Below are positions 22,867 through 53,377 of a stretch of 64,000 nt of DNA, in pieces. Made by a program: the position numbers and the translations under genes. The first letter of the stretch is position 1; each line of letters opens with the position of its first letter. The stretch spans positions 4,261 to 68,260 of the forward strand of contig CAYSDJ010000008.1 of assembly GCA_964429775.1 (NCBI GenBank). The letters run 5' to 3'. Under the pieces are notes generated by a model. It searched no databases. It was not told the DNA's origin and worked only from the letters and a program-made list of their open reading frames with translations. Source of the DNA: an uncultured Rhizobiaceae bacterium. GTDB taxonomy: Bacteria; Pseudomonadota; Alphaproteobacteria; UBA828.

Positions 22867-24525
22867 CTACAAATCGCCGCCGCTGGCGAGGCCGTAACCG
22901 CGGCGATCCGATTCGAACGTGCAGGTCTCCGGGCTGCGCGGCAAGCCACCCGGGCAGTGAATGGCGTTGACGCGCCCGATTTCGCGAACATCGAACACTT
23001 CATGTTTATGCTGAACTAGGCTTTGGCGCACCGCCGCCGGCAGATCGGGCTCGACGAATACGGCGTTCGGCACACCGCCATGGTGCAAACGAGGCGCCCG
23101 AATGGCATCGCGCAGCGGCCTTTCTTCCAGAAGCGCGCGGCGCATGACGCTGGCCAAGGCCGAGGGCGCCGCCGCGCCGCCGGTCGAGGCGCCGGCAAAG
23201 AATACCTGACTGGTATTGTGATTGGCGACAATGATCGGTGCGAGAGAGGTGGTGGCGCTGCCGGATTGCGCCGGTGACGCAGCGAGTAGGATGCCCGTGC
23301 CCGGCACAATTCGCCCGGTGCCGAACAGATTGTTCATGGTCACGGCACAGGAGACCGTGAGGCCGCGCTGATCGACCGTCACAAAGCTGGTGGCGGCGGG
23401 GTTTTCGAGCCGGCGTTTCGGCGCCGGCTTGAGCGCTTGCGGCGAAGTCGCGCGGCCCGCCTTGTAGGATGCCATGCTCGCTTGCAGGCGTGCCATATCG
23501 AATCCGGCCGCTGTGCCGCCATCGAGCCAATTCTGCCGGTCGGCAAAGGCGCGTTTCGAAATCTCGGCGATTAGATGCGCGTGCTCGCCATCGGCCACAC
23601 CAAGAAAGCGTCCATCCTCCGCCAACAGAGAGAATATTGCCCCGGCGGTGAGCCCGCCAGCGACGGGCGGTGCGGCGGTGTGAATAACATGATGGCCAAA
23701 GGGAAATCTGACACTCTCCCGCCATTGCGGGCTGTAGGCGCGCAACTCCGCCTTGTTTATAGCGCCGCGAGCCTGAGAGATGCCGGCAATCATTTTTTTG
23801 GCGATCGAGCCGATATAGAAATCCCCTGCCCCGCGCAGCCGCAACTGCGACAGCACCGCACCCAAATCAAGCTGGCGTATGAGATCTCCCTCGGAAATCG
23901 GTTCGCCGGCCGCGTTGAGAAAAACTCGGCGCAGTTCAGGGTCGGTAAAGAGTGCCGGTCCGGCGAGGCGCAGATCGCGCGCCAGGGCGCGGCTGACCTG
24001 ATGGCCAAATCGGGCAAATCCCTCCGCCGGCGACAGCAATTGCGACCATTTGAGCCGGCCGTAACGCGCCTGCAAGGCATACATGCCGCGCACATTTCCT
24101 GGAACCGCATTGGGACGGCTTATGGATTCGTCCCGGGCCGCCGCCGGGGGGGCAAAAAATTCGATAATTTCCGTGCTGTCGCCGTCATCCTCGTCAGGTT
24201 GATGGACGAGACAGAGGCCACCGCCGCCAAGGCTCGCGGTCGAGGGATAGGTGACGGCAAGGGTAAAATAGAGCGCCACTGCAGCATCCGCGGCATTGCC
24301 GCCAGCCGCCAACACATCGCGCGCCACCAGCGCGGCGCGCGGCTCATCGGCCACGGCGCCGCCGAAATAGCGGGTGGATTCAAACATCGAAATATCTGGT
24401 AAAGTCTGGGTAACTTCGCAACCGCCCAATAAAACCAGCGCCGCCGCCGCAAGGACGGCACGCCGGTGCAGTCGGGAGACTCGCTTCGTTAACGAATTTG
24501 CCCCAAGGGAAACTACTTTGACCAT
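22867..24525 (-). CDS. gamma-glutamyltransferase family protein (lipoprotein signal)
   Basis: Lipobox LVLLGGC and GGT-family blocks. The start is uncertain (ATG at 24525 or 24555). The 24525 start would overlap the divergent bepA-like start. Confidence 0.75.
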   Translation of the reverse strand: MVKVVSLGANSLTKRVSRLHRRAVLAAAALVLLGGCEVTQTLPDISMFESTRYFGGAVADEPRAALVARDVLAAGGNAADAAVALYFTLAVTYPSTASLGGGGLCLVHQPDEDDGDSTEIIEFFAPPAAARDESISRPNAVPGNVRGMYALQARYGRLKWSQLLSPAEGFARFGHQVSRALARDLRLAGPALFTDPELRRVFLNAAGEPISEGDLIRQLDLGAVLSQLRLRGAGDFYIGSIAKKMIAGISQARGAINKAELRAYSPQWRESVRFPFGHHVIHTAAPPVAGGLTAGAIFSLLAEDGRFLGVADGEHAHLIAEISKRAFADRQNWLDGGTAAGFDMARLQASMASYKAGRATSPQALKPAPKRRLENPAATSFVTVDQRGLTVSCAVTMNNLFGTGRIVPGTGILLAASPAQSGSATTSLAPIIVANHNTSQVFFAGASTGGAAAPSALASVMRRALLEERPLRDAIRAPRLHHGGVPNAVFVEPDLPAAVRQSLVQHKHEVFDVREIGRVNAIHCPGGLPRSPETCTFESDRRGYGLASGGDL

Positions 24526-25867
24526 ATTCAAAGCGCGCACGGTCGGCTTCGTCATCGCAATATTTGTTTCAATGTTGGTGGTTGCTCCGCCGGTAGAGGC
24601 AAAAGGATTATCGCTTATCCGCGATACGGAAGTTGAAAATACCATCCGCGCCTATGCGGCGCCACTATTCACAGCCGCCGGATTGGATGCGGCTGCGGTA
24701 AAAGTGCACATTGTCAATGATTCACGCCTCAATGCCTTCGTTGCCGGCGGCTTGAATTTGTTCGTCAATACCGGCCTGTTGATGGCGAGCGATAATCCGG
24801 ACCAGATTATCGGCGTTTTCGCGCATGAGACCGGCCATATTGCCGGCGGCCATTTGGCGCGCACCCGTGAAGCCGTCGAAAACGCCACAGCGGAGGCCAT
24901 TTTGGCCTATATCCTGGGCGCCGCCGCGATTGTGGCCGGTGGCGGCGAAGCCGGCGGCGCCATCATCGGCAGCGGCCAGGCGATAGCGCAACAGTCGCTC
25001 ATCCGCTACAGCCGGGCGCAGGAGCAGGCGGCGGACCAGGCGGCGGTACGCTACCTTGAAAGCGTCGGGCGCTCGGCTGAAGGCATGCTTGAGGTATTTC
25101 ATAAATTGGAGGACCAGGAATTGCTCGTACCGGAGCGCCAGGACCCCTATGTGCGCTCGCACCCGCTTACCCGCGACCGGATTCGATTCGTGCAAAATTT
25201 CATCGAGTCGTCGACCTACTCGACCACCAAATCGAGTGCCGACGAGCTTATGGCGCACAACCGGATGGTGGCCAAACTATATTCATTTCTGAACTCACCG
25301 GGCCGGACCCTTCGGACCTACCGCACCAGCGATACCAGCCTGCCGGCCAGGTATGCGCGCGCCATCGCCTATTTCAAAATCCCCGATCTCGAAAAGGCAA
25401 TTGGCGAAATCGACTCACTCCTCAGGGAATATCCCAACGACCCGTGGTTCCACGAGGTAAAGGGGCAAATATTGTTCGAAAATGGCCATATTGCGCTCTC
25501 GGTTGCGCCCTATGAGCGCGCCGTCGCATTGCGCCCCGACGAGGCTCTCCTCAGGCTCGGACTGGCGCGCGCCCAAATCGAGATAAACGATCCGTTATTC
25601 AACAAAAAAGCGATAGAAAACCTGATCATCGCGGTGCGCTCGGAACCCAATCATGCGCAACACTGGCATTTTCTCGGCATCGCTTATGGCCGTGACAAGC
25701 AACTGGCGCAATCTTCCCTCGCCCTGGCCGAGGCATCGATTTTGCGCGGCGAGTTTGTTGAGGCAAAATATCATGCCGAGAAGGCTAAACGCGGGTTGGA
25801 AAATGGCTCTCCGGCCTATTTGCGCGCCGAGGATATCAGCATGGCAGCAAACCACGGCAACCGATAA
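24518..25867 (+). CDS. M48-family metalloprotease with C-terminal TPR repeats (BepA/YfgC-like)
   Basis: Signal peptide and HETGH zinc motif with a downstream Glu. The C-terminal TPR region resembles BepA. The putative TTG start at 24518 is preceded by AAGGGA. Confidence 0.75.
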   Translation: MTIFKARTVGFVIAIFVSMLVVAPPVEAKGLSLIRDTEVENTIRAYAAPLFTAAGLDAAAVKVHIVNDSRLNAFVAGGLNLFVNTGLLMASDNPDQIIGVFAHETGHIAGGHLARTREAVENATAEAILAYILGAAAIVAGGGEAGGAIIGSGQAIAQQSLIRYSRAQEQAADQAAVRYLESVGRSAEGMLEVFHKLEDQELLVPERQDPYVRSHPLTRDRIRFVQNFIESSTYSTTKSSADELMAHNRMVAKLYSFLNSPGRTLRTYRTSDTSLPARYARAIAYFKIPDLEKAIGEIDSLLREYPNDPWFHEVKGQILFENGHIALSVAPYERAVALRPDEALLRLGLARAQIEINDPLFNKKAIENLIIAVRSEPNHAQHWHFLGIAYGRDKQLAQSSLALAEASILRGEFVEAKYHAEKAKRGLENGSPAYLRAEDISMAANHGNR

Positions 25868-26252
25868 AAATATCCACAAGCAACAAATTGCGGTCTTACC
25901 GCGGTGGTTATGCACGGTCCAACGATTGTACCACAAATTTTGGAACCAAAATGAAACATAATTAACCAAAGATCCTGTGGTATGACCGATATGTAGTTTC
26001 GTATTACATTGTTTATTTACAAATTATTATATTGCAAAAAGGATGTAATACACGACCATTTGTCAGACACGATTCCGTGCTATGTTCCGAGTTCGTAAAT
26101 TATAGCCGGATTGGCAATAGTTCACTGATCGTTCTGTACTACACCACAGTATTTAACTAAATCATGAGTTAATATCGTTAACTTATTGATATAAGACCCG
26201 TTTATACCGATTCTAACTTGATCACTTCAGCCCGATCCCGGCCGAAACGGAT
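25868..26252. other. AT-rich non-coding island between convergent genes, with inverted repeats (26001..26051 hairpin; GTTAA-N5-TTAAC at 26168..26182)
   Basis: About 385 bp of roughly 35% GC DNA in a genome of about 60% GC. It holds no credible ORF and several palindromes. Confidence 0.5.
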
Positions 26253-27254
26253 CTAAATCAGACCGCCGAGCGGCGACGACGGGTCGGCATATTGTTTTTT
26301 CGCCATTCGCCCGGCCAAATAGGCCATTCTGCCCGCTTCCACCGCGAGACGCATGGCATGGGCCATGGCGATCGGGTCCTTGGCCTCCGCGATGGCTGTG
26401 TTCATCAACACGCCGTCACAGCCAAGCTCCATGGCAATCGCCGCATCCGAAGCCGTGCCCACCCCGGCATCAACAAGAACCGGGACCGAGCTGTTTTCGA
26501 TGATAATGCGCAGATTCACGGGATTTTGCACGCCAAGGCCGGAGCCGATCGGCGCCGCCAATGGCATGATCGAGACAGCGCCCAAATCTTCCAGCTTTTT
26601 CGCCATTATCGGGTCGTCGCTGCAATAGACCATGACATCGAAACCCTCTTTGACCAGCAATTCGGTGGCGCTCAGGGTTTCGATCATGTTCGGGTAAAGG
26701 GTGGTTTGGTCGCCCAAAACCTCCAATTTCACCAGTTTCCAGCCCCCCGCCTCACGCGCCAGGCGGAGCGTGCGCACCGCGTCTTCGGCGGTAAAACAGC
26801 CGGCGGTATTGGGCAGATAGGTATATTTCTTGGGGTCGAGATAATCGACCAGCATCGGCTCATCCGGGTTGCTCACATTGACGCGTCGGACGGCAACCGT
26901 GACGATTTCCGCCCCCGAGGCCTCGGCGGCACGGGCGGTTTCGGGGAAATCGCGGTATTTTCCGGTGCCGATAATGAGACGGGAAGTGAATTTCCGCCCG
27001 GCCACGCTCCAGCCCTGCCCCTCGCCGTCAAGCACCGGCGCGGCGCTTGCGGCGCTGCCGCCACCGATGAAATGGACGATCTCCAAGCGGTCCCCGTCCT
27101 CCACCGGCGTGCCGTCATAGGCGCCCTTCGGCACAATCTCGAGATTGCGCTCCACGGCGATCTTGCGCGGGTCGAAGCCGAGGCTCCGCAACATGGAATT
27201 GACCGTCAGGGGACCGTCAAAATTACGCGCTTCGCCATTAATCTGAATCTGCAT
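26253..27254 (-). CDS. thiG: ThiS-ThiG fusion (sulfur carrier + thiazole synthase)
   Basis: The N-terminal 66 aa form a ThiS-like domain ending ...VHFIGGG. It continues in frame into ThiG (LIIGTGKY..., Schiff-base Lys region). ATG at 27254. Confidence 0.8.
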
Positions 27255-27480
27255 TTCGCCGCTTTTATCCTTCCACCGGCGGCGGGCCGCGCCCGGCCGC
27301 CATATTGCAAACCAATCTGAATTAGAGTATGGCCACGTCCCTCGGCATTTCAACCGTTTGGGCGATCAAGCGGCGAAATTGCATAATAAACGCCCGAACC
27401 GCAGATTGAACCGAGACAATCGCTGAGCACGCGCCCGCTCTCTCTTGGTGCTAATAAGTTTGAATTGGTTTAGTATGGTT
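27255..27480 (-). promoter_or_regulatory. thiS-thiG leader; possible TPP riboswitch (unconfirmed)
   Basis: The 225-nt leader lies upstream of a thiamine biosynthesis gene. The minus strand contains CTTGATCGCCC...TGCCGAGGGA, which loosely resembles the 3' half of the THI element. No clean CUGAGA box was seen. Confidence 0.25.
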
Positions 27481-29807: not shown

Positions 29808-30454
29808 TGATTGACCTGTCGCCGGAACTCATTCTCAAGGCCTATGCCTGCGGCGTTTTTCCGATGGCGGAGAACAAGGACGATCCATCTGTATTCTGGG
29901 TCGATCCGGATTTTCGCGGCGTTATCCCGCTTGAGGAATTCCACCTCTCGCGCCGCCTCGCCCGCACCGTGCGCTCGGGCAAGTTTCAGGTCAGCGTCGA
30001 TCAGGCGTTCGACAGCGTCATCCGTAAATGCTCCGAGCGGACGCAAAAACGCGAAGAATCGTGGATCAATGATTCGATTATCGAGGTCTATGGCGAACTG
30101 CATCGCCGCGGCAACGCGCACAGCGTCGAATGCTGGAGCGGTGAAAACCTGGTCGGCGGGCTTTACGGCGTCTCGCTTGGCGCCGCGTTTTTCGGCGAGA
30201 GCATGTTCAGCCGCGCATCTGACGCAAGCAAGGTCGCCCTGGTGCATTTGATTGAGCGCCTGCGTGCCGGCGGCTACAAACTGCTCGATACCCAGTTCGT
30301 GACCGAGCATTTATCGACCTTCGGTGCCATCGAGTTGCCGCGCGGGACATATCTTGAGCATTTACGCGCCGCACTTGAGCGCGAGGCGACCTTCTATCCG
30401 TTTGATTCGGAATTTTCCTGCCAGATGGCGCAATCGAGCACCCAGACATCATAA
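29807..30454 (+). CDS. aat: leucyl/phenylalanyl-tRNA--protein transferase
   Basis: The ATG overlaps the accC stop (ATGA). YACGVFPM...WVDPDFRGV...GESMFS are L/F-transferase motifs. Confidence 0.85.
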
Positions 30455-30798
30455 ACCGGATGCTCAAGCGCCGAGAGGCCGGGCGTCGAGGCGAACATCC
30501 AACCACTGAACAGAAGCTTGACCGGCTCGCCGCGCTGTTTCTCACGGATTTCCAGAAAGGCGGCGCTTTCCGGTGGTTCCTCGGGCGGCTTTTTGTGACA
30601 CGCCTGGGCAGTAATCTCGAGCGTTCCAAAGCTGACCGGCACGCCGAGCTCGGCGCTAAACTCGGATATCCGCGCGGTTACCTTATCGAGCCCCTGTAGC
30701 ACCACGGCCGTGCGTTCCTGCGCGGATACGCTCATCGGGCTCAACAGCAGGCCGATTGCCAGCACGGCAACGGCGCCTAGCGCACCTTGACTATTCAT
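30394..30798 (-). CDS. DUF2155-like secreted protein
   Basis: ATG at 30798 overlaps the amidase stop (ATGA). Signal peptide present. The conserved block [18 protein letters not shown] is consistent with DUF2155. Confidence 0.55.
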
Positions 30799-32198
30799 CC
30801 GAACGGCCCTGGTGGCTTTTTGTCCACCCACGGGCAGGCCTCCTCGAAGGCCGCGGCGGCGCGGAAAATATCCGTCTCCGAATTGATCCGTCCGACCATC
30901 TGAAATCCGACCGGCAGGCCCGCTTCGGTAAACCCGGCCGGAATCGATGCGGCGGGCTGGCCGGTGGCGTTGAAAGGATAGGTATAATAAACCCAGGATA
31001 CGGCATTGCGGTCCTCCCACCCGGGCGGCACGTTCAGGCCGACACCGAAGGCGGCGACCGGCAATACCGGCGACAGCAGCAGGTCATAATCGTCAAAAAA
31101 CTCACGCACCTGTTCGCGAAAGGCGTAGCGGGCAAAGAGTAGCGTGAAATAATCCTCGATCGAATTATCAAGCGCGCCGGACAGCAGTTCGACCACGGCG
31201 GGATCCAATTGATCGGCCGAGTCGGACAAAATCGCTTTTAGTTTGGTTCCGACCCCGCCATAAAATTCCGCCGCCCAGATATCGAGCGGCTCGTCGCCCA
31301 GCGGCGCCTCGACCAAATCGACCGTGCAGCCCAGTTGCTCGAAGGTCCGCGCCGCCTGTTCAGTGATTTGCAAAACCTCCGGATCGCTGCGGGCATAGCC
31401 GAAGGTTGGGCTCCATGCGATGCGCATGCCTTTGACCGATTGGCCGCACGCAGCGAGATAATCCGGCACCGGCCCGGCGACGGCAAAAGGATCGCGCCGG
31501 TCATGGCCGGAAATGACGCCAAGCAGCAGTGCAGCGTCGCGCACGGTGCGGGCGAGCGGGCCAACATGGGCAAGTGTCGGCGTCGCCGGCACCGGAAAAA
31601 GCGGCACGCGCGAGAATTGCGCCTTGATACCAAACAGGCCGCACAGCGAAGACGGAATCCGAACCGAGCCGCCGCCGTCGGTGCCGAGCGCAAACGGCGT
31701 GAGCCCGGCGGCAACGCTCGCCCCCGCGCCAGCGCTCGAACCACCCGGCGTCTTGGCCACATTCCAGGGATTGCGCGTGATGCCGGTGAGCGGACTGTCG
31801 CCGGTGCCCTTGCAGCCGAATTCACTGGTCGTTGTTTTGCCGATGATGCAGGCACCGGCGGCGCGTGCGCGTTCGACCGAGGGCGCATCGACGGGGCCAA
31901 TATTTTCGGCGAACGGTTTGGAGCCGAAGGTCCAGGGCACATCCGCCATGGAGATCAGGTCCTTGACCGATAGGGGCAGGCCATGCAGGGCGCCCAGCTC
32001 CGCCCCCGCCATCACTGCCTGCTCCGCTTTACGTGCGGCTTCAAGGGCAATTTCCGGCGTGAGGGTGACGAAACAATTGAGCGCCGGCTCGAGCGCCTCC
32101 TGTCGCGCGAGGGTATCCGCGACCAGTTCAACAGGGGAAATTTCCTTGGCCGCGATCATGCGCGTGAGATCAAGAGCGGTGGCGTAAGCGAAACTCAT
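30795..32198 (-). CDS. amidase signature (AS) family amidase
   Basis: GGSSAGAGASVAAGL... Ser-cisSer-Lys amidase-signature core, 467 aa. Confidence 0.85.
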   Translation of the reverse strand: MSFAYATALDLTRMIAAKEISPVELVADTLARQEALEPALNCFVTLTPEIALEAARKAEQAVMAGAELGALHGLPLSVKDLISMADVPWTFGSKPFAENIGPVDAPSVERARAAGACIIGKTTTSEFGCKGTGDSPLTGITRNPWNVAKTPGGSSAGAGASVAAGLTPFALGTDGGGSVRIPSSLCGLFGIKAQFSRVPLFPVPATPTLAHVGPLARTVRDAALLLGVISGHDRRDPFAVAGPVPDYLAACGQSVKGMRIAWSPTFGYARSDPEVLQITEQAARTFEQLGCTVDLVEAPLGDEPLDIWAAEFYGGVGTKLKAILSDSADQLDPAVVELLSGALDNSIEDYFTLLFARYAFREQVREFFDDYDLLLSPVLPVAAFGVGLNVPPGWEDRNAVSWVYYTYPFNATGQPAASIPAGFTEAGLPVGFQMVGRINSETDIFRAAAAFEEACPWVDKKPPGPFG

Positions 32199-32211
32199 GG
32201 CGGCGGTTTCC

Positions 32212-33279
32212 TCAAATCACGCCGGAGCCACGGTCGAGCGCTTCCGGTGCCGTGAACACGCAGGCGGAGAAACGCGCTTCGAGATCGGCCCGGTCGAGCC
32301 CCTTGCCAATGACGACGATACGGGTTTCAGGCTCGCCGCGTGGCCAGCTATCGGCATAGGTGGGCGGGCTGAATGTCGCTTGAACGCCCTGCAGAATAAC
32401 CGGCTGATCGACATTATCGAACTGCACCAGCCCTTTGACACGGTACAAATCCTCACCATGCATCTCGGTCAGCTCGACGAAAAAGCGCAGCACCAGGTTC
32501 CAATCCATAACGCGCTTTTCCTGCAGACAAACGGCTGTGACTTCCGGCGTGTGCTCATGATCATGCGCGTGGCCGGCCTCCTCCTCGGTCGAGCCAAGCC
32601 AATCGCCGATCGCATCATCACGATTTTTGGGATCGAAGATGTCGAGGTCGACGATCTTGTCGACCGGCAAGGCACCGTGCGAGGTGACCTCCTTGCGCGA
32701 ATAGGGGTTGAGCGCGCTTACCACGGCGACGGTGCGCTCGAATGCCGCATCGTCGACCATGTCGCGCTTGTTGAAAATTATCTTATCGGCAATGGCGATT
32801 TGCTTTTGCGCCTCGATCGAATTGGCAATCTCGATTTCGACATGCTTGAGGTCGACCACGGTGAGAACCGCATCGAGCTTAAATGTGAGATCGAGCTTTA
32901 TGTCGGTATAGAGCAGTTTGGCCAAGGGCGACGGGTCTGCCATGCCGGTGGTTTCGATGATGATCTTATCGAACTCGATCTGCGGCTCGGCCAGTCCGAC
33001 TTTGCGCATGAAGAGCTTGTTGAGGCCGTCCAAGAGGTCGCCCTGTGCGGCGCAACAGATACAGCCATTGGTGAGCTCAAGCATATCCTCGGTGGCGCGC
33101 GCGATCAGATCGCCGTCGATACCGATTTCGCCGAACTCATTGACGATGACGGCAATTTTTCCGGCGTCCGGGTCGCTCAGCACATGATTGATCAGGGTGG
33201 TTTTGCCCGCACCCAAAAAGCCGCTCAGCAATGTGATCGGAATGCGTTGATCGCCGTCGCGCGAATCAAGCCGAGGCAT
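32212..33279 (-). CDS. COG0523 (CobW/Nha3/ZigA-type) GTPase metallochaperone with His-rich stretch
   Basis: Walker A GFLGAGKTT, a CICC metal-binding motif (GCICCA), and a His-rich linker (EEEAGHAHDHEHTPE). Confidence 0.85.
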   Translation of the reverse strand: MPRLDSRDGDQRIPITLLSGFLGAGKTTLINHVLSDPDAGKIAVIVNEFGEIGIDGDLIARATEDMLELTNGCICCAAQGDLLDGLNKLFMRKVGLAEPQIEFDKIIIETTGMADPSPLAKLLYTDIKLDLTFKLDAVLTVVDLKHVEIEIANSIEAQKQIAIADKIIFNKRDMVDDAAFERTVAVVSALNPYSRKEVTSHGALPVDKIVDLDIFDPKNRDDAIGDWLGSTEEEAGHAHDHEHTPEVTAVCLQEKRVMDWNLVLRFFVELTEMHGEDLYRVKGLVQFDNVDQPVILQGVQATFSPPTYADSWPRGEPETRIVVIGKGLDRADLEARFSACVFTAPEALDRGSGVI

Positions 33280-33290
33280 GTGCCGTCAGA

Positions 33291-33995
33291 TCAGCCGTCC
33301 ACCATCGCCCAGGCGCGAACCGGCGAGCCGCTGCCGTCACCTATTTTGAGCGGCGGACCAAAAAACTGAAACTCACCTTTGCCGATGAGCTGCTCTAGGT
33401 TGATCAGCCATTCATAGTGGGTGATGCCCCGGTCGCGGCAGACGCGATGGTTGGGAAAGAGATTATCCGACGGCTTGTCGGTCGACGGCCCTTCGACGCC
33501 ATGCAGTTTGGACCCTCTGTCCGCCAGCCAATTGGTCGCATCGGCGGTAATGCCGGCATTGCTCCACACCACCTTGACGTCGGGGTAATGGCGCTCATGC
33601 AAACCGGTGCACATCAGAACAATATGGCCATCGATTTTGACACCGGCCTTTTCCTCTGCCGCTTCTATGTCGGAGATATCGATATCGCCGAGATCCGGGA
33701 TATGGCGCATATCGAGGCATACCGATTTTCCCATAAACATATCGAGCGGCATATTGTCGACCGTGTCGCCATTGGGGTTGGTGTGATAGAAGGCATCCAC
33801 ATGGGTGCCGATATGATCGACCATACCCAAGAATGTGGTGGCGAACGAAAGCCGGTCGTTGGGCGTTCCGAGTTCGAAATCCTTGAGGGTTTTTTCGTGC
33901 GTGTAATGCGGAACGATGACGGGCCGCTGGAACAGTTTATGCGCCGGCATATTGTCGGTCATCTTTAATGTCAGATCGATCATCTGTTGGCCCAT
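33291..33995 (-). CDS. cyclase-family protein (kynurenine formamidase-like metal hydrolase)
   Basis: HxGTHxDxPxH-type motif (DHIGTHVDAFYH), typical of the putative-cyclase fold. Confidence 0.7.
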   Translation of the reverse strand: MGQQMIDLTLKMTDNMPAHKLFQRPVIVPHYTHEKTLKDFELGTPNDRLSFATTFLGMVDHIGTHVDAFYHTNPNGDTVDNMPLDMFMGKSVCLDMRHIPDLGDIDISDIEAAEEKAGVKIDGHIVLMCTGLHERHYPDVKVVWSNAGITADATNWLADRGSKLHGVEGPSTDKPSDNLFPNHRVCRDRGITHYEWLINLEQLIGKGEFQFFGPPLKIGDGSGSPVRAWAMVDG

Positions 33996-34096
33996 TTAAA
34001 CCTCCCTGAATTATTCGAATTCCGAGCGAATTTCTAATTCAAGAAACACTAACAGGGCGCACCCAGCAGCCGCAATGCTACGCTCAACGGTGGCAA

Positions 34097-34870
34097 TCAG
34101 CTGGCAACGGTCCCGGCGGAGAGGTAGGCGCCGTCAAATCCGGCCAACGTCATCAGCTTCTCGCGATCGAGAATGCGCAAGATGCCGCCGCGCAGATCCA
34201 TCAGTTCCTCATCACGCAAGGCGCGCAGCGTCCGGTTGACATGAATTGTCGTGAGACCGAGCGCATCGGCCAAATGACGCTGCCGGAGCGGCATGAAGAT
34301 GTGCCCGTCATGGACCGCACCGCGCCAATGCAGCAAGGCATCGAACTCAAGCATCAGATGGGCGATTCGTTCCTTGGCGGAACGCCGGCCCAAATTTGTC
34401 ATATGTTCGTCCGCCATGGCGAGCTCGCGTTCATAGCAGGCATTGGCACTGGCGCTAAGCTCATCATTCTCGCGCATATGCTTCTTCATCAATTCGACAT
34501 CGAATTCACTGACCACGGCCTCGGAAAGCAATTGCACCGAATAAGCCAGCGGGCGCGGCGACAAAGCGCTCAGCGTCACCGGATCTCCTGGTAACAGGAA
34601 CGAAAGAATTTGCCGCCGGCCATCACTCAGCATCCGATAGCGCAACCCCCAGCCATCGAGAAGCGAATAGAACGCGGCTGCGTTCTGACCTTGGCGCAGC
34701 ACGGTCGTCGGCTTGGTTACCACACTCTGGCGCACGCGAACGGCCTGAATTGATTCCAGCCGGCGCCAATCAAGTATCGCTGCAAAAGTGAACCCCTGGC
34801 TATTTGCCGCGAAACCATAATTTTCGCCGCCAATCGCGGGCGCATGTTTCATGTTTTCCTTAGGGCTCAC
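34097..34870 (-). CDS. Crp/Fnr-family transcriptional regulator
   Basis: cNMP-binding beta-roll and a C-terminal HTH (TIHVNRTLRALRDEEL). Confidence 0.8.
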   Translation of the reverse strand: MSPKENMKHAPAIGGENYGFAANSQGFTFAAILDWRRLESIQAVRVRQSVVTKPTTVLRQGQNAAAFYSLLDGWGLRYRMLSDGRRQILSFLLPGDPVTLSALSPRPLAYSVQLLSEAVVSEFDVELMKKHMRENDELSASANACYERELAMADEHMTNLGRRSAKERIAHLMLEFDALLHWRGAVHDGHIFMPLRQRHLADALGLTTIHVNRTLRALRDEELMDLRGGILRILDREKLMTLAGFDGAYLSAGTVAS

Positions 34871-35576
34871 AGCTTCGATCTCCCATTGAGTAGGCGGCGT
34901 TCACCGACAACAGATTTTCATTCGCTCTTAGTCCCAGTTAATCCACGACATGCGGTATTTAAAGAATCTTCCCCGCCACCATGATTATCTTGCCGCAAAG
35001 CGGCATTTATCAAGCACTCAAATACCCGTTATGCATATTTGAGGTGAAATTTTTCGTGATTCCCAACTTAGAATTGACCGGGTCAGGCTGATTTTGATCA
35101 AGAAAAATAAATCTCCGGGATAGCCCTGAGCTAAAACCTCAGCAGAGCAGTCTGAAAAAAATTGGAAAAATTGAAAAAAATATTTTTTGACTTAGTTCTT
35201 TTTTCCTATTTTTAATAACCTATGTCGAGGAAATAAATACACACCATAAATTATTAGTTCGTTGTTTTACATGGTTAATATCGCATCACCGCCACAGACG
35301 GCGGAAAATATCCGGTAATTTACGTATATTTCCACAATTTTTCCATGTTTTTAATTGCTTAACTATCCTGCGGCAAACTTCAATAAATATAACGGAAGTT
35401 ATTGCAAGAGGGTAACAACCCCCATAACTGAGTAATTTAGTTAATAACCCAAGGTTTCGATGATCGGACCAAAACACAATCCGTCTAATAGTGAATGTCA
35501 CGAACTGATCTGAGGATTTGCCGCCTAAATCTGGCTGCGGCACAGCAGCCACTCTCTTACCGAAGGAAGATTAGAA
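34871..35576. other. AT-rich (~35% GC) non-coding island with phased A-tracts (35154..35195)
   Basis: About 700 bp with no credible ORF. It has runs such as GAAAAAAATTGGAAAAATTGAAAAAAATATTTTTTGA. It is flanked by the crp-family gene and an MCP remnant. Confidence 0.5.
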
Positions 35577-35617
35577 ATGCCCAGAAGCTCCGCTGCAAAG
35601 AAGTCAAGTTCCCGTAA

Positions 35618-36025
35618 ATCACCATCGAAATCCGGCGCCGCAAAGCCGGCACCGCGCCGCGCCAAGGCTGCGAGCAAACCCAAGGGGCCGTCCACATCGG
35701 CCTTGCAGGCCCGTATCAGGGGGCAACCTCCGAATCGGTTACCGCGATTGAAGGTATCGGCGGCACGATTGGACAGATCAGCGAAATCGCCACCACCATT
35801 GCTTCGGCTGTCGAAGAGCAAGGTGCGGCAACGCAGGAAATTTCCAACAGCGTGCAGCAAGCGGCACAGGGCACGCAGGAAGTGTCCAATACGATCCAAA
35901 GCGTCACTCAGGCGGCGCAGGAATCTGGCGAATCCGCTGGACAGGTCAAGGAAGCTTCGAACGAACTGTCGCAGCAGTCCGAGGGCATGCGCAGCACGAT
36001 CGAAAACTTCATCGCCGGAATCTAA
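35618..36025 (+). pseudogene. 3' remnant of a methyl-accepting chemotaxis protein gene (C-terminal ~105 codons, no start codon in frame)
   Basis: The frame translates to ...[57 protein letters not shown]...IENFIAGI*. This matches the MCP signalling-domain C-terminus. The frame opens only at 35618 and has no ATG/GTG start. Confidence 0.6.
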
Positions 36026-36050
36026 TAATTAAGGTGAATGTCACTCACCG

Positions 36051-36092
36051 GGGGCGGGCAGCCAATTTGGTTGCCCGCCCTTTCCTTTTTTG
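36051..36092 (+). terminator. Rho-independent terminator (GGGCGGGCA-gccaatttggt-TGCCCGCCC + TTTCCTTTTTT)
   Basis: A perfect 9-bp GC stem followed by a T-run, immediately downstream of the MCP remnant. Confidence 0.65.
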
Positions 36093-36164
36093 CCGTGCCC
36101 TCTATTGTACCGATGAGCGCTGATGTATAGTTTCCGGGCAGGAATTGGCAGGAGTGAAGACGTC

Positions 36165-37055
36165 ATGACGCCGGAAAAGATTCTGGCCCACGCGCCCAAG
36201 ATTTTGAGCCAGGAAGAGCGCGAGGCCTATTTCGAGAGCGGATATCTGCTCAAGGAACGCTTTGTCAGCGAGGCCTGGTTGGAGCGCCTTGGCGAAGTAA
36301 CCGGGCGCATGATTGACGAAAGCCGCAACGTCAGCGTTTCAGACGATAAATTCGATGTTGAAGACGGGCACACGCGCGAGGCGCCGAAACTGCGCCGCCT
36401 CACCCAGCCGGTCGAGCATGATCCCGTCTACTGGGAGTTTGCCGCCAATTCCATGATTACCGATCTGGCCGAAGACCTGCTCGGGCCTGACGTCAAATTT
36501 CACCATTCAAAGCTCAATTTCAAATGGTCCGGCGGCGGCGAAGAGGTGAAATGGCATCAGGACATTCAGTTTTGGCCGCACACCAATTTCAGCGTCCTCA
36601 CGATCGGCCTCTATCTTGACGATGTCGACGATATGATCGGCCCGATGGGTGTCCTGCCGGGCAGCCACAAAGGAGAAATCTTCGACCAATATAACAGTGA
36701 CGATCAATGGGTCGGCTGCCTGAGCGACAAGGACTTAGGCAGGGTCGCGCTTGAGAATGCGGTCTATCTGAAGGGCCCGGTCGGCTCGGTCACCGTGCAT
36801 CACTGCCGCACCCTGCACGGCTCGCGTGCCAACAATCACCCAACCAGGTCGCGGCCGCTATTGTTGAACGCTTTCTCTTCCGCCGATGCCCTGCCGATCA
36901 CGCCCAACCCGACACCATCGCGCCATAATGGCGAGATCGTGCGCGGCAACGCGGCACGCCACGCTGAGTTCGACCCCTACCCTGCGCGCCTGCCACCCGA
37001 TTGGTCCGGCGGATACAGCTCCATCTTTGCGCTTCAGCAGGAAGAAGCGATTTAG
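36165..37055 (+). CDS. phytanoyl-CoA dioxygenase (PhyH) family Fe(II)/2OG oxygenase
   Basis: A HxD...H facial-triad pattern (WHQDIQFW ... VHHCRTLHGS). An SD precedes ATG 36165. Confidence 0.7.
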   Translation: MTPEKILAHAPKILSQEEREAYFESGYLLKERFVSEAWLERLGEVTGRMIDESRNVSVSDDKFDVEDGHTREAPKLRRLTQPVEHDPVYWEFAANSMITDLAEDLLGPDVKFHHSKLNFKWSGGGEEVKWHQDIQFWPHTNFSVLTIGLYLDDVDDMIGPMGVLPGSHKGEIFDQYNSDDQWVGCLSDKDLGRVALENAVYLKGPVGSVTVHHCRTLHGSRANNHPTRSRPLLLNAFSSADALPITPNPTPSRHNGEIVRGNAARHAEFDPYPARLPPDWSGGYSSIFALQQEEAI

Positions 37056-37058
37056 AGC

Positions 37059-37466
37059 TCAGCCGATTATCTCGCCTTCGACAAAGGCCATCGCCTCAAT
37101 TTCGATTTCCAGTTCCGGCAGCGCCAGACCGGTGATTTCAACGATGGTATCGGCCGGGTAAGGCGGGGTGAAATATTTCTCCCTGAGCCCGACAATTTTT
37201 CCGAAATTGCCCATATCCTTGAGAAAGATCGTCACTTTAATGATCTTCGAGAGATCCGAGCCGCCGGCGCGCAGCACGGCTTGCAGATTTTCGAAGGCCT
37301 GGTCCGCCTGGGCATCGAAATCGCCGGCGCCGACCACCTCGCCCTGCATATTTATCGCCGCCTGGCCCGATACATAAATCATATTGTCGACGCGATAGGC
37401 CTGGGCGAGGCGAAAGGCCTCATAGGGGTCCGGGTCGGTCTTAATGCGAATCGCCTGTTGCACCAT
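37059..37466 (-). CDS. RidA/YjgF family protein
   Basis: 135-aa chorismate-mutase-like fold motifs (PARSTVQV-like block: ADTIVEITGLALPELEIEIEAMA). Confidence 0.8.
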   Translation of the reverse strand: MVQQAIRIKTDPDPYEAFRLAQAYRVDNMIYVSGQAAINMQGEVVGAGDFDAQADQAFENLQAVLRAGGSDLSKIIKVTIFLKDMGNFGKIVGLREKYFTPPYPADTIVEITGLALPELEIEIEAMAFVEGEIIG

Positions 37467-37545
37467 GGTTCACGCTCCCTCGGGTTATTGTTGTCCGGTT
37501 AAGACTAATCGCCATCGCATCCCACAACAATAAGCGCCTTGTGCC

Positions 37546-38484
37546 TTAGGTGTGGCGTTTCCTGATGCCGCGATTGACCAGCGCCAGACCGAGGAAAAGC
37601 AACGCCAGCGCGCCCCAAATATAGACGCTCGGCCGTTCGGCGAAGATAAGCATGGCCCAGGCAATGCCGGCCAAAACGGTAAGATAGTTGAACTGTGAGA
37701 AAAACACCGACCCGGCGCGGCGCACGATTTCGAAAAACAATAGCCAGAATGCGGTGTTGATCGCCGTTGCCATTAGCACCGCCCAATCGCCCATGCCGTT
37801 TTCGCCAAGCGGAATATAGGCCTGCCCAGTGGCAAACATGACGGGTAAGAGAAACACGGCTGAAACCAGCAGCAAGCCGCAGGCCAGCATAACCGACGGT
37901 GCCTCCGGCGGGCGAAACTTGCCGGCAAAGGCGTTGACCATGGCGAAGGACACCGGCGCCAGCAGTGAGAGCAACAGCCAGCCGGCCATTTCCGGCTCGG
38001 GCAGACTTGCCTCGGGAACCACCATCAGCACCACGCCGGCGAGGCCGACCAGAATGCCGATGATGCAGACGATGCGGAACCGCTCCATGCCGAGCATGAG
38101 TGCAAACAGATAAGTCAGTGGCGGCGACAGTGCGAGAACCAGGGTGAGCGCGCTGGCCGGCAGCTTGGCGGCGACGAGAGAAAGCAGCGAGATCGGAAAG
38201 GCGATGCCAAGCACGCCGGAAACGACATATGTGCGGAGATAAATCAGGTCGAGGCGCGGCACTGATTTTGTAAACACGGAAAGTATCAGGAGTGCCAGCC
38301 CGGCGCCAAGACTTTGCCAGAAGGCGTAGGCGATCGGCGGTACGCCGCCCGCTATGGCAAAGCGATTAACCGAAAAAAGCGCGCCGAAGATGATCGCGGT
38401 GGCGATCAGCATGATCAGCGGTACAAATCGCTTCAGGTCATGGGACTCGCCATAACTGCGCAGGTCGCTAACATAGGAACCCAT
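37546..38484 (-). CDS. DMT-superfamily (EamA-like) transporter
   Basis: Ten predicted TM helices arranged as two EamA repeats. Confidence 0.75.
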   Translation of the reverse strand: MGSYVSDLRSYGESHDLKRFVPLIMLIATAIIFGALFSVNRFAIAGGVPPIAYAFWQSLGAGLALLILSVFTKSVPRLDLIYLRTYVVSGVLGIAFPISLLSLVAAKLPASALTLVLALSPPLTYLFALMLGMERFRIVCIIGILVGLAGVVLMVVPEASLPEPEMAGWLLLSLLAPVSFAMVNAFAGKFRPPEAPSVMLACGLLLVSAVFLLPVMFATGQAYIPLGENGMGDWAVLMATAINTAFWLLFFEIVRRAGSVFFSQFNYLTVLAGIAWAMLIFAERPSVYIWGALALLFLGLALVNRGIRKRHT

Positions 38485-38637
38485 AGTGGGAGCCCTCTCC
38501 TTATGGGTGCGATTCGCCCATGTGGTGTGAAATTGTACCGGTCATGGTGCGGGGATTGGCAGCCTCGGGCTTTGACCCACATCAAACCGGACGGCGCATT
38601 CCGTGTCGGCAAAATGGACAAGTGAACGGGAGCTAAG

Positions 38638-39447
38638 ATGGCGAAAAAGAAAGCGAATGTGATCCTCACCGAGCGCTCAAAGAACGTGCTCACTGTGACC
38701 CTCAACCGGCCGGAAGTGCTGAACGCGGTCAACGGACCGCTCACCGAGCAATTGTTTGAGGAATTGGCGGCGGTGGAAAATGACGCGCGCATCCGCTGCG
38801 TCGTGATTCGTGGCGGCAACGGACATTTCATGGCCGGCGGCGATCTCAAACTGTTTCACGGCGAGCTCGACCGCGACGGTGACGAACGTCGCCGTTTCTT
38901 TGAAAAATTCGTCTATCAGGTGCATCCGCTTATTCAGGTCATCAAGCGCCTGCCCAAGCCTGTTGTCGCCAGCGTTGAAGGTGCTGCAGGCGGATTTGGT
39001 GTCAGCCTGATGCTGGCCTGCGACCTGGTCATTGCCGCGGATACGAGCTTTTACACCATGGCCTATTGCAGCATCGGCACCAGCCCGGATGGCTCCTCGA
39101 CCTATTTTCTGCCACGCTCCGTCGGCCTCAAAAAAGCCATGGAACTGGCCCTGCTGTGCGACCGTTTCGATGCCGAAACGGCGAAAGAATATGGCATGGT
39201 CAATTGGGTCGTGCCGGAAAAAGCCCTTGCCGCCGAGACCGCCAAACTCGCCAACCGTTTGGCAAGCGGGCCGACCAAAGCGTATGGCAACACCAAGAGG
39301 CTGCTTAACAACTCGCTGCACGCAACGCTCGACGATCAATTGCAGGCCGAGGCCGAAAGCTTCTCGCAATGTGCCGGCAGCGCTGACTTTGTCGAAGGCA
39401 TCAACGCGTTCGTCGAAAAACGCAAAGCCCGCTTCAAGGGCAAATAG
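38638..39447 (+). CDS. enoyl-CoA hydratase/isomerase (crotonase) family
   Basis: Crotonase oxyanion-hole motifs (FMAGGDL ... GAAGGFGVSLMLACD). Confidence 0.85.
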   Translation: MAKKKANVILTERSKNVLTVTLNRPEVLNAVNGPLTEQLFEELAAVENDARIRCVVIRGGNGHFMAGGDLKLFHGELDRDGDERRRFFEKFVYQVHPLIQVIKRLPKPVVASVEGAAGGFGVSLMLACDLVIAADTSFYTMAYCSIGTSPDGSSTYFLPRSVGLKKAMELALLCDRFDAETAKEYGMVNWVVPEKALAAETAKLANRLASGPTKAYGNTKRLLNNSLHATLDDQLQAEAESFSQCAGSADFVEGINAFVEKRKARFKGK

Positions 39448-39459
39448 GAGAGCAACCGC

Positions 39460-39927
39460 ATGGCCGAACGTTCACACGATTATTACGTCAAACTCGTCGA
39501 GCAGGATTATTTCGGCAGTGTCACGCGCCAGGACAAAGCCGCCATCCTCGATTGTTTCACCGAGGAGGCGCGCGTCACCATCTATCACGGAGACAACGAG
39601 CCGCGCCGCTTTGCCGGCAAATCGAACGCCGGCGAATCTCCGCTCGGCAGTTTTTTCGATCACTTGCTCACCAATTACGACCCGGCATTTGAGGATTTCA
39701 CCCACTATGTCGATGTCGCGAATGACCGCTGCGCCGCCCATTTCAGGGTTCACCTGACACCCAAGGCGGATTCGCCATATTTGGCCGCCGGCGTTCTGGT
39801 TTTGCAGAATTGTAACTTCTTCCGCTGCCAGGGCGGCAAGATCGACGACATGATTCTCTACTACGCCAATCCATCGGCGGCCAACGCCGGCGGGGCGATG
39901 CCGACCGGTTTTCCCAAACAAAAATAG
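39460..39927 (+). CDS. NTF2-like/SnoaL-like small protein
   Basis: 155 aa. The composition and spacing are consistent with an NTF2-like cone fold. The call is by weak similarity only. Confidence 0.45.
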   Translation: MAERSHDYYVKLVEQDYFGSVTRQDKAAILDCFTEEARVTIYHGDNEPRRFAGKSNAGESPLGSFFDHLLTNYDPAFEDFTHYVDVANDRCAAHFRVHLTPKADSPYLAAGVLVLQNCNFFRCQGGKIDDMILYYANPSAANAGGAMPTGFPKQK

Positions 39928-39947
39928 AAATGCGACAAGAAACTCTC

Positions 39948-40847
39948 ATGAATAAGAAAACACATTCCGGTTTTTTCGGCGTCTATCCGATGCTGTTGGC
40001 GTTTTTTCAGGCCGACGGCAGTCTTGATTTGAACACAACCGCCCGGCAAGTCGATGCCCTGGTTAAACACGGCGCGCATGGCTGTGCGGTGATGGGTTTG
40101 GGGACGGAGGTCAACAAGCTCTCCTATCAGGAGCGCCGTGCGGTGATCGATGCAGTGGCCGAGCGTCTGGATGGCCGCCTGCCCTTCTGTGTCACTGTGG
40201 GCGAGAACAATGTTGCCGGGCAGATCGAATTCGCCCGCGCCGCCGAGGCCGCCGGCGCCGATTGGCTGATCCTCCAGCCGCCAACCGTCGGCGAATTGCC
40301 GGAGCGGGAATTGCTGCGCTTTTTCGGCCAGATTGCCGAGGCGATCAGCCTGCCGCTCGGCGTGCAGAATGCGCCGCAATATTTAGGCATTGGTCTCTCC
40401 AATGCCGGATTGCGCGATCTGCACGCGCAGCACGAGAATTTCAAAATTGTCAAAATCGAGGATGACCCGCTCGCCTTGCCGCCGCTGCTTGACGCCACCG
40501 ATGGTGCGCTCGATGTGTTTGTCGGGCGCGCCGGCCTGGAGGCATTGGAAGTCTTCCGCGCCGGCGCCTGCGGCCTGATACCCGGCTTCGAAACTTTCGA
40601 CCGCTTGGCCCTGTTGTTTGATCATCTTGATGAAGGGCGCGATGCCGAAGCCGATGCGCTCTATCAAAGCGTCGAGCCCGCACTCGTCTTCATGCTGAAA
40701 TCAATCAACCATTTCGTTACCTATTCGCGCGAACTATCCGCCCGCCGCCTGGCGCTTGCGCATATACACCACCGGCTCGGCGTTGATGTGACGCCGCTCG
40801 GTCAGCGCCTGGTCGAGAAAATCGCGTTGCAGTTGGGCCCCCTTTGA
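39948..40847 (+). CDS. dihydrodipicolinate synthase/N-acetylneuraminate lyase (DapA) family protein
   Basis: TIM-barrel class I aldolase blocks (GCAVMGLGTE...GVQNAPQYLG). The stop overlaps the downstream HK start. Confidence 0.7.
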   Translation: MNKKTHSGFFGVYPMLLAFFQADGSLDLNTTARQVDALVKHGAHGCAVMGLGTEVNKLSYQERRAVIDAVAERLDGRLPFCVTVGENNVAGQIEFARAAEAAGADWLILQPPTVGELPERELLRFFGQIAEAISLPLGVQNAPQYLGIGLSNAGLRDLHAQHENFKIVKIEDDPLALPPLLDATDGALDVFVGRAGLEALEVFRAGACGLIPGFETFDRLALLFDHLDEGRDAEADALYQSVEPALVFMLKSINHFVTYSRELSARRLALAHIHHRLGVDVTPLGQRLVEKIALQLGPL

Positions 40848-41989
40848 GCGGCACACGAAAAACAACCGCGCGTCTCGACAATAGCGAAATCCTCGCCGCT
40901 GCCGGGCATGATTTGCGCCAACCGATGCACTCGCTCAATCTGGTTTTGGGCGCTCTCGCCGGACGTGCCGAAGATTCCGAAACCGCCGCACTGGTGAACA
41001 GCGCACAGATTTCAGCCGACGGCGTTACCAGTGTGCTGGAAACGCTGCTCGGAATTGCCACCATGGACGCCGGCGGCGCGGCGCCGGAAGTTTCCCAATT
41101 CGCCGTGCAGGACCTGCTCCAGCATCTCAGCGAACAATTTACCCAGCGCGCCGCCAATAAGGGTCTTCAGCTGCGCATTATGCCCTGCACCCTCAGCATC
41201 AGGAGCGACCGCGTGTTGTTGCAGCGGATATTGGAGGCGCTCCTCTCCAATGCCATACGCCATAGCGAAAGCGGGCATATCCTGCTCGGCTGCCGCCGAA
41301 CAAAGCGTGCGCTGCGTATCGGTGTGTTGGACCAGGGGCCGGGCCTGAACGAAGAAATGGCGGCGCGATTTTCCACCGTCAACAGCCAAGATGGCGCGTT
41401 TTCGAAATCAAGCTGGCGCGGCTATGCCTTGGGCCTCTCGATCGCGCAATATATTTGCGCCGCACTTGGCCATGACATGACCGTGGTGTCGCGCCAAGGA
41501 AAAGGTGCCGCTATTTGGCTGAAAGTGGATTTGGTCGGGGCGCAGACCAAAAGCACCGCAGAAGCCGTTTCCCCTCCCCCCCTCGCCCCGGAAGAGAGCG
41601 ATGCCGCCATCGCTATCATCGAGGACGACCCGGATATTCTATTTGCAACAACGCAATTCCTAACCGGTTGGGGATATCGCGTCTGCGGCGGCAAAACAGC
41701 AGCGGCGACAATTCAGGATATCGAGACGAATGGCGGCGGCGCCTGCCCTGATCTGGTGCTGTCGGATTTCAATCTGCCCGAGGGGCAAACGGCGGTGGAC
41801 GCGATGGCCGAACTGAACCATCACTTCGACACGGAAATCCCGGCCATCATTATCACCGGTGACCCGTCCGCGCCGGGTATCGCCGAGGCACGGGAGCTCA
41901 ATTACGAAATTCTGAACAAGCCGCTGCGCGCCGCCAAGCTGCGCGCGCTGGTTCGCTACACCCTGGCGGAGAGACCGCAAACATCGTGA
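40844..41989 (+). CDS. cytoplasmic hybrid histidine kinase (HisKA-HATPase-REC) with no sensor domain
   Basis: H-box AAGHDLRQPMHS at residue ~22 and N/G boxes (LSNAIRHS, GYALGLSIAQ). C-terminal receiver with LVLSDFNLPEGQ and no TM segment. Confidence 0.8.
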   Translation: MSGTRKTTARLDNSEILAAAGHDLRQPMHSLNLVLGALAGRAEDSETAALVNSAQISADGVTSVLETLLGIATMDAGGAAPEVSQFAVQDLLQHLSEQFTQRAANKGLQLRIMPCTLSIRSDRVLLQRILEALLSNAIRHSESGHILLGCRRTKRALRIGVLDQGPGLNEEMAARFSTVNSQDGAFSKSSWRGYALGLSIAQYICAALGHDMTVVSRQGKGAAIWLKVDLVGAQTKSTAEAVSPPPLAPEESDAAIAIIEDDPDILFATTQFLTGWGYRVCGGKTAAATIQDIETNGGGACPDLVLSDFNLPEGQTAVDAMAELNHHFDTEIPAIIITGDPSAPGIAEARELNYEILNKPLRAAKLRALVRYTLAERPQTS

Positions 41990-52759: not shown

Positions 52760-53377
52760 TTACGGGCGCATATCGATATAATTGACGACGACACCGACAC
52801 CTTCGGTTTCGCTCGAGACCTCAACGGCTTTCAACATCTCCTCCTGCGAGCGGGCGCGACCGATCAAGTAGACGCTGGCAAAAGAGTCGACCGCGACCCG
52901 TAAATTCACGTCGGCAACACCCGCCGTCCCAATCAGGTTGATGCCGACACGGGCGTCGAGCTCGATCGCATCGACCCAATCGAGCATTTCATCTTCATTC
53001 GCCTCCTGGTCTTCCTCGCTCATATATTCGATGTGCCAATAAAGCTCCTTGATGCCCTCGACCTCCATCACCTTGGTGCGGAATTCTTCATACAATTCGG
53101 CATCGTCAAACAGTCCGGTCATCAGAAGGCGCTGCTCGTAAATTTCGGTCGACGCCTTGATCGTGCCGAGTTCCGCCATGATCGCGTTGACCTTAATGAC
53201 GATCTCATTGTCCTTGATAATATCCGAACTGCTGCGCGCTTCGATGGCCCGGTCGATTAAGGTTTTTGGCGCGGTTAGAACGTCATCCAATAAACCGGCC
53301 CGCGCCGGAACGGGATTCCAAAAACCAATGCAGGAAACGGCGACGGCCAGCAGTGCGGAAGTAAGAATATTACGCAT
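52760..53377 (-). CDS. BON-domain protein (OsmY-like, two BON repeats)
   Basis: Signal peptide plus two BON-like repeats (VKVNAIMAEL...; VNLRVAVDSFASVYLIGRA). Confidence 0.65.
   Translation of the reverse strand: MRNILTSALLAVAVSCIGFWNPVPARAGLLDDVLTAPKTLIDRAIEARSSSDIIKDNEIVIKVNAIMAELGTIKASTEIYEQRLLMTGLFDDAELYEEFRTKVMEVEGIKELYWHIEYMSEEDQEANEDEMLDWVDAIELDARVGINLIGTAGVADVNLRVAVDSFASVYLIGRARSQEEMLKAVEVSSETEGVGVVVNYIDMRP

Follow-up and report, generated by a model that had tools for sequence, protein, structure and literature searches.

The window, the 64-kb stretch of DNA analysed here (58.8% GC), carries a long AT-rich intergenic region (the island) followed by what resembles the tail of a methyl-accepting chemotaxis protein (MCP) gene. 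A sequence-only reading had described this tail as a start-less remnant (35618..36025), either left by a deletion that removed the 5′ part of an MCP gene or marking the birth of a new small gene, and had described the DNA upstream as carrying A-tracts typical of intrinsically curved DNA. The locus thus raises the question of what the tail once belonged to, how it came to its present state, and whether the island is anything other than regulatory sequence.

The two ends of a receptor gene

The features of the locus are as follows.

34097..34870, minus strand: Crp/Fnr-family transcription regulator gene (Pfam PF00027 and PF13545, cNMP-binding domain and Crp-type HTH)
34871..35576, no strand: AT-rich divergent intergenic region (706 bp, 39% GC; core 35040-35460, 34% GC)
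35562..35579, plus strand: RBS and start of the former chemoreceptor gene (GAAGGAAG, 7-nt spacer, ATG 35577-35579)
35577..35717, plus strand: retained 5′ coding fragment (47 codons, 90% nucleotide identity to the relative L002)
35717..35718, plus strand: deletion junction, where L002 homology ends (MCP homology begins at 35714-35717)
35717..36028, plus strand: retained 3′ coding fragment, MCP signalling domain (last 103 codons and stop, ending ENFIAGI)
36050..36092, plus strand: putative intrinsic terminator (15-bp G+C-rich stem, 3-nt loop, T-run)

The homology of the tail to MCPs proved genuine. Its C-terminal helices returned 812 matches at E ≤ 1e-3, the best of them 91% identical and many named MCP by their source. 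The 3′ fragment shares 91% amino acid identity with protein P0001, encoded in the relative L001, and 35730-36026 is 84% identical to L001 at the nucleotide level. This homology is confined to the last ~100 residues: tblastn aligned 35714-36013 with residues 420-519 of a full relative, and the Pfam MCPsignal profile (PF00015) was matched over positions 123-170 of 172, with a score of 18 bits against a cut-off of 34.6. A complete MCP signalling domain is not present at the locus, and the conserved hairpin tip (NLLALNATIEAARAGE...) is gone. In MCPs, the tip of the signalling hairpin is the binding site for CheA and CheW. No further MCP-like sequence was detected by tblastn elsewhere in the 64-kb window.

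In the MCP frame, a TAA stop occupies 35615-35617. The earlier reading had allowed that an in-frame start might yet make a full MCP protein of the remnant; none was found upstream of GTG 35852, and no uninterrupted ORF runs from a start codon through the MCP domain anywhere at the locus. Beyond its C-terminal homology, the window copy has none of the features by which a functional MCP would be recognised.

The gene is nevertheless not start-less. An RBS, the ATG at 35577 and the first 47 codons lie 140 nt upstream of the MCP part, in another frame, and the RBS and ATG are conserved in the relatives L002, L006 and L007. The origin of this fragment is apparent from L002, a Rhodospirillaceae MAG (JABIXB010000099.1), which aligns with the window through the regulator gene, the island and exactly 47 codons before diverging at 35717; in that relative the ORF opened by this ATG runs on through tandem PAS modules of the Aer2 type. 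Both ends of the window gene are co-linear with orthologues and the interior is missing, as expected of the deletion that had been proposed. The deletion was internal, however, and did not remove the 5′ part of the gene: the upstream region, RBS, ATG and 47 N-terminal codons were all kept. Likewise, the MCP portion of the interval 35618..36025 stands, whereas 35618-35713 belongs to the N-terminal fragment read out of frame and is not MCP. In total, 452 nt of the receptor gene are kept in the window.

The downstream frame is -1 relative to that of the ATG (35717-35577 = 140, which is not a multiple of three), and the joined ends share no more than 1-2 nt of possible microhomology, judging the 5′ side from L002 and the 3′ side from the relative L004. 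A simple frameshift at the G5 run, within a "repaired" small protein of 149 aa, was considered and rejected: L002 shows the two halves to be the two ends of a ~2-kb gene.

The terminator reported after the remnant was borne out. Downstream of the stop codon, the hairpin 36050-36082, with its 15-bp stem and T-run, folds with a ΔG of -35.7 kcal/mol (z -3.98), and none of 200 shuffled sequences folded as well. The same hairpin occurs in L001 and L007 with G-U-compatible changes, and its form suggests a role in terminating transcription of the gene. A PhyH-family gene sits downstream of the remnant and the terminator.

The parent receptor and its fate in relatives

Comparison with orthologous regions, proposed earlier as a check, revealed a long gene at this position in L002. 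After the shared 47 codons its ORF continues (...ALQARIDELELMVNAMPINVLL...) for at least 258 further codons, encoding at least two and a half PAS modules of ~122 aa; the PAS sequence beyond the breakpoint includes …CGTATCGATGAGCTTGAG…. The gene comprises 305 open codons to the contig end and is apparently intact, its 3′ end and downstream flank lying beyond the contig. The PAS modules match the Aer2 PAS-heme structures 6CEQ (E 4e-15), 4HI4 and 3VOL, including the motif IDIFHK.P.HQR; 3VOL and 4HI4 are P. aeruginosa Aer2 and 6CEQ is V. cholerae Aer2. Full-length relatives are soluble PAS-PAS-MCP proteins of 490-530 aa. By these similarities, the ancestral gene is related to the Aer2-type soluble PAS-heme receptors, its modules being predicted to be PAS-heme-like.

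The likeness has limits. In common with Aer2, the parent gene (as represented by L002 and the proteins P0121-P0130) specifies a cytoplasmic product with two or three tandem PAS modules carrying FHK.P.HQR and an MCP signalling end. Unlike Aer2, the relatives appear from a reading of their sequences to be without a poly-HAMP region, and one of them (P0130) scored 250 bits against the 1200-bit cut-off of the NCBIfam Aer2 equivalog NF041847, a model that implies poly-HAMP. The window copy differs further in that PAS modules are absent from it altogether. To our knowledge, the Lys/Ala/Pro-rich N-terminal tail is not a described feature of Aer2. Multi-PAS versions of Aer2 have been described for Vibrio, among them the tri-PAS Aer2 of V. 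vulnificus (PMC10107281).

Comparison of the remnant with L001 gave, in the MCP frame, a pS of 0.55, a pN of 0.04 and a dN/dS of 0.04; in the other two frames dN/dS was about 6. Therefore, strong purifying selection acted on the MCP frame, and the receptor gene was functional, during most of the period after the window and L001 lineages split.

Apart from L002, the relatives carry damaged copies. All comparison sequences are metagenomic, and errors of assembly or sequencing could account for some of the frameshifts among them.

L007 (34-kb contig in synteny with window positions 30000-41911): a fusion of about codon 24 to the final ~55 codons
L006: almost the whole gene, carrying a 1-nt insertion in the N-terminal tail, other frameshifts and a CAA-to-TAA stop
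L001: a deletion of ~30 nt that shifts the frame, and a TAG stop
L004: frameshifts
L003 and L008: only ~80 codons from the centre of the gene, within the ~690 bp that separate the regulator gene from the PhyH gene

L006 and L001 represent one lineage (94% identical where they overlap) and together yield a composite gene of ~2.0 kb, itself damaged. L003 and L008 come from different samples, are 92% identical to each other and have the same degraded layout. It is unlikely that the large deletions with distinct breakpoints, or the layout shared by L003 and L008, are assembly errors. The lesions arose independently and, as far as these sequences tell, represent recurrent decay, with at least four types of lesion across five lineages or samples. 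Such different lesions, set among syntenic neighbours in related marine Rhodospirillaceae-like lineages, suggest relaxed selection on this oxygen-/redox-type taxis input.

With co-linear ends, a missing interior, a broken frame, past purifying selection and sister lesions that differ, the window copy resembles ordinary internal-deletion pseudogenes and departs from them in nothing essential; the number of independent lesions is noteworthy, not unusual. In its present state, the locus is an ordinary pseudogene with an internal deletion, a kind already known.

The AT-rich divergent region

The island had been reported as much lower in GC than its surroundings and devoid of a credible ORF, and both observations held: its GC content is 39%, compared with 58-59% for the genes on either side, and it contains no conserved ORF, the indels in its alignment with L002 not being multiples of three. 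The 64 kb contain two other low-GC islands, both of them shorter intergenic regions. An 88-aa ORF on the minus strand (35286-35552) was discarded, since indels whose lengths are not divisible by three disrupt it in L002. A mini-ORF of 15 codons (35271-35318) is equally long in L002, with four non-synonymous and two synonymous changes and no RBS. An Rfam scan of 34500-36400 at E ≤ 1 yielded only a chance lncRNA match (E 0.99), and megablast found no plasmid match to 34000-37100.

An AT-rich region occupies the same place in L002 (888 bp, 36% GC, with an extra AT-rich segment of 179 bp) and in L007 (865 bp, 35% GC); those of L003 and L006 also look AT-rich when the sequence is read by eye. From these matching positions, the island is ancestral regulatory DNA, found in all examined lineages that cover it, and not an insertion. 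We interpret it as a long divergent regulatory region shared by the regulator gene and the former chemoreceptor gene.

The regulator protein is 96% identical in L002, and its gene is syntenic in L003, L007 and L008. Its NCBIfam matches to FnrL and FixK are weak and sub-threshold. The true start of the gene may be ATG 34852. As a divergent neighbour, it would have its promoter within the island.

Overall identity of the island to L002 is 0.756, which is approximately neutral: the regulator gene has diverged at 25% of its synonymous sites (pS 0.25). The least conserved segment is the A-tract part, 35041-35260, which at 0.68 identity to L002 evolves at or above the neutral rate. Three blocks are at least 92% identical to L002 against a background of ~75% (35001-35039, 35258-35286 and 35328-35390), as is the region of the RBS and start. 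Against L006 and L003, divergence left only two parts of the island alignable, the surroundings of the RBS and start and a short core, CTTAA.TA.CCTGCG. The elements that can be proposed within the island are listed below.

34984..35013, minus strand: candidate sigma-70-type promoter of the regulator gene (TTGATA-18-GATAAT, 10/12, consensus scan)
35088..35101, plus strand: FNR/FixK-type box candidate (CTGATTTTGATCAA, one mismatch to TTGAT-N4-ATCAA)
35153..35213, no strand: A/T-tract cluster (TGAAAAAAAT twice, 19 bp apart, with A5 between, then T6, T6 and T5)
35258..35286, no strand: constrained block A (GTTGTTTTACATGGTTAATATCGC, at least 92% identity to L002)
35328..35390, no strand: constrained block B (TTTCCACAATTTTTCCATGTTTTTAATTGCTTAACTATCCTGCGGCAAACTTCAATAAAT, at least 92% identity to L002)

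The candidate promoter lies ~115 nt upstream of the regulator start and overlaps the edge of the constrained block 35001-35039. Both of its hexamers are unchanged in L002. The FNR/FixK-type box is one of four 1-mismatch matches in the 64 kb and is largely conserved in L002, where GATTTTGATCAA is unchanged. We treat this box as a lead only, because the total of such matches in the window is not above chance (32 compared with 23.9 ± 4.7). Blocks A and B are candidates for the promoter or operator of the chemoreceptor gene; the core of block B, CTTAA.TA.CCTGCG, is recognisable in L006 too. Sigma-54, sigma-28 and CtrA motifs were sought by eye in the conserved blocks and rejected on account of spacings that do not fit.

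The description of the island as periodically spaced A5-7 tracts typical of curved DNA was correct as to the tracts and not as to their arrangement. A/T runs of at least five nucleotides are enriched (10 in the island compared with 5.6 ± 1.9 in dinucleotide shuffles, p about 0.02), and they are concentrated in the one 60-bp cluster, where the T-tracts repeat the A-tracts in inverted orientation. However, in none of three intervals, the whole island, its core and the cluster region, did Fourier power of AA/TT at 10-11 bp exceed that of shuffles (p 0.35-0.85). Curvature was estimated over 105-bp segments with a wedge model, using Bolshoy-Trifonov parameters. The most curved segment of the whole window lies inside the island, centred at 35317 and not at the cluster 35153-35213; it adjoins the conserved blocks and is barely ahead of other loci (0.832 vs 0.837). 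This minimum ratio of end-to-end to contour length, 0.832, does not depart from what composition provides (0.884 ± 0.041 in island shuffles, p 0.11). Reading of the L002 sequence places its curvature maximum at the corresponding position. Like phased A-tract curved upstream regions of the UP-element or H-NS-bound kind, the island is AT-rich, enriched in A5-7 and T5-6 runs, located upstream of promoters and the site of the highest predicted curvature in the window; unlike them, its phasing and curvature fall within composition-matched controls and the cluster sequence is not conserved. The A-tracts of the island are a compositional feature and not a phased array.

Origin of the locus and competing explanations

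The ancestral receptor gene was probably ~2 kb long, with several Aer2-type PAS modules preceding an MCP signalling domain, and would have been transcribed rightwards from the shared divergent AT-rich region to the intrinsic terminator. One deletion of ~1.6 kb would then have fused codon 47, out of frame, to the codon that stands 103rd from the 3′ end. We infer both the size and the single event, the former from the ~2.0-kb composite gene as compared with the 452 nt kept; a junction with 1-2 nt of overlap fits a single illegitimate deletion in which the frame offset was made directly. Because such a deletion would have taken all PAS modules together with the hairpin tip that contacts CheA and CheW, no functional receptor could result. 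The flanks may have been kept either because they are still needed (the regulator promoter, and insulation of the PhyH gene by the terminator) or because there has been too little time for decay. With RBS, ATG, upstream blocks and terminator all intact, transcription and translation of the locus may well still yield some product.

A different origin for the break would be an artefact, in which the gene is in truth intact or in frame and the junction and its offset, close to the G5 run at 35719-35723, reflect misassembly or a homopolymer error. The close relatives found all derive from metagenomes, and the same may therefore hold for the window; assembly of tandem PAS repeats is difficult, and the frameshifts of L004 and L006 could be errors. 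Yet the break lies outside the PAS repeats, and a k-mer-based misjoin is unlikely given that the joined sequences have no more than 1-2 nt in common. Independent samples (L007; L003 and L008) carry large deletions of a similar sort that break elsewhere, and even an in-frame fusion would be without PAS modules and hairpin tip. We therefore regard an artefact as very unlikely. The birth of a new small gene, suggested previously, would concern the following frame.

35577..36032, plus strand: 151-aa ORF open from the ATG (47 genuine codons and 104 out-of-frame, very basic codons)

Either this basic product would be functional, or a 149-aa protein made by slipping into the -1 frame at AGG-GGG-C, in which the Lys/Ala/Pro-rich N-terminus is fused to the C-terminal MCP helices. 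The expression signals are indeed intact and conserved, the ORF is open for 151 codons, and the G5 run permits GGG-to-GGG re-pairing in the -1 frame. Selection speaks otherwise: in the ATG frame dN/dS is about 6, with no sign of selection, compared with the 0.04 of the old MCP frame. Moreover, L001, whose lesion is different and which has no fusion, likewise keeps the alternative frame open across the homologous 102 codons; the openness of this frame thus comes from composition, and we judge the 151-aa ORF to be a compositional by-product and not a new gene. The junction itself occurs in no relative, each having a different lesion, frame 0 contains no canonical X XXY YYZ slippery heptamer, and the fusion would be without the CheA/CheW-binding tip. 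A functional new gene is accordingly extremely improbable. Short MCP-like proteins in the databases were considered as a small-protein family and set aside, being truncated or fragmentary MCPs with unrelated N-termini.

As for the island, it might be a specialised element: curved DNA bound by a silencer of the H-NS/MucR type, horizontally acquired DNA, or a small RNA gene. GC falls further here than anywhere else in the window, A/T tracts are enriched, the window's maximum of predicted curvature at 35317 has a counterpart at the matching place in L002, and the constrained blocks 35258-35286 and 35328-35390 lie well away from both start codons. We nonetheless consider this unlikely, since 10-11 bp periodicity is lacking, curvature stays within that of shuffles, the best Rfam match (E 0.99) is not significant, the presence of the island in all lineages covering it makes it ancestral and not a recent acquisition, and substitution in its A-tract part is no slower than neutral. 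There is also a slim chance that the locus has taken on a new role, through a 151-aa or 149-aa product or through blocks 35258-35390 acting as an undescribed regulatory RNA or operator kept for the regulator; if so, the product could, for example, interfere with chemoreceptor arrays or bind nucleic acid.

We conclude from comparison with the relatives that 35577-36028 is, with high probability, an internally deleted pseudogene of a soluble Aer2-like multi-PAS chemoreceptor. It should be annotated as such, and labels such as small gene, start-less fragment or special curved-DNA element should be avoided. Beyond annotation, a little interest attaches to the same receptor having been lost in parallel by several lineages and to the conserved blocks within the island.

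Decay stages of the chemoreceptor gene and relatives of its sensor modules

Three of the relatives' loci carrying the damaged chemoreceptor gene (L007, L006 and L001) belong to one closely related population, sharing 94-98% nucleotide identity. Within this population, the L007 contig bears a large internal deletion of the gene, whereas in L006 and L001 the gene is near-full-length but frameshifted. Thus, different stages of chemoreceptor-gene decay appear to coexist in a single population.

Some database relatives combine the same Aer2-like PAS repeat modules, the sensor part of the ancestral chemoreceptor, with precomputed globin-family Pfam matches (P0124, P0128, P0139 and P0186). The match is to PF01152 in P0124 and P0128, both of which carry the NCBI name 'group 1 truncated hemoglobin', and to PF00042 in P0139 and P0186, the latter named 'PAS domain-containing protein'. 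In these four proteins the globin replaces the MCP domain or sits next to the PAS modules.

Length of the AT-rich island and a mini-ORF within it

The island of the orthologous Rhodospirillaceae locus, L002, contains a very AT-rich segment of ~179 bp (L002 about 1414-1594) that is absent from the window, its site corresponding to between window positions 35079 and 35082. A mini-ORF begins inside the conserved block A (35258-35286) of the island:

35271-35318, mini-ORF of 15 codons, MVNIASPPQTAENIR

The L002 counterpart, MVNIAIPPQNDEIIR, keeps the ATG, the length and the TAA stop. Nevertheless, because the two versions differ by four non-synonymous and two synonymous changes, and an RBS is absent, the mini-ORF is probably not coding.

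The PhyH-family start and a candidate FNR/FixK-type box

The longest ORF of the PhyH-family gene starts at 36123. In L001, L003 and L007, however, alignment of the orthologous genes does not begin until the ATG at 36166 (MTPEKIL...), which is therefore probably the true start; with this start, about 75 nt separate the gene from the T-run of the terminator.

Outside the island, a candidate box was found in the short divergent spacer between an EamA-family gene (37546-38484, minus) and an enoyl-CoA hydratase gene (38638-39447, plus):

38572-38585, FNR/FixK-type box candidate with one mismatch, TTGACCCACATCAA

The Crp/Fnr-type regulator encoded nearby may act at this site.

Other low-GC islands of the window

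Two more low-GC islands lie in the window. The island at 53321-53610 (about 43% GC) is upstream of a cold-shock-protein-like gene (53647-53895), and that at 25831-26270 (about 40% GC) is flanked by two ORFs:

24374-25867, TPR-containing protease-like ORF (putative family, from the translation alone)
26253-27353, minus, ORF reading as ThiS fused to ThiG
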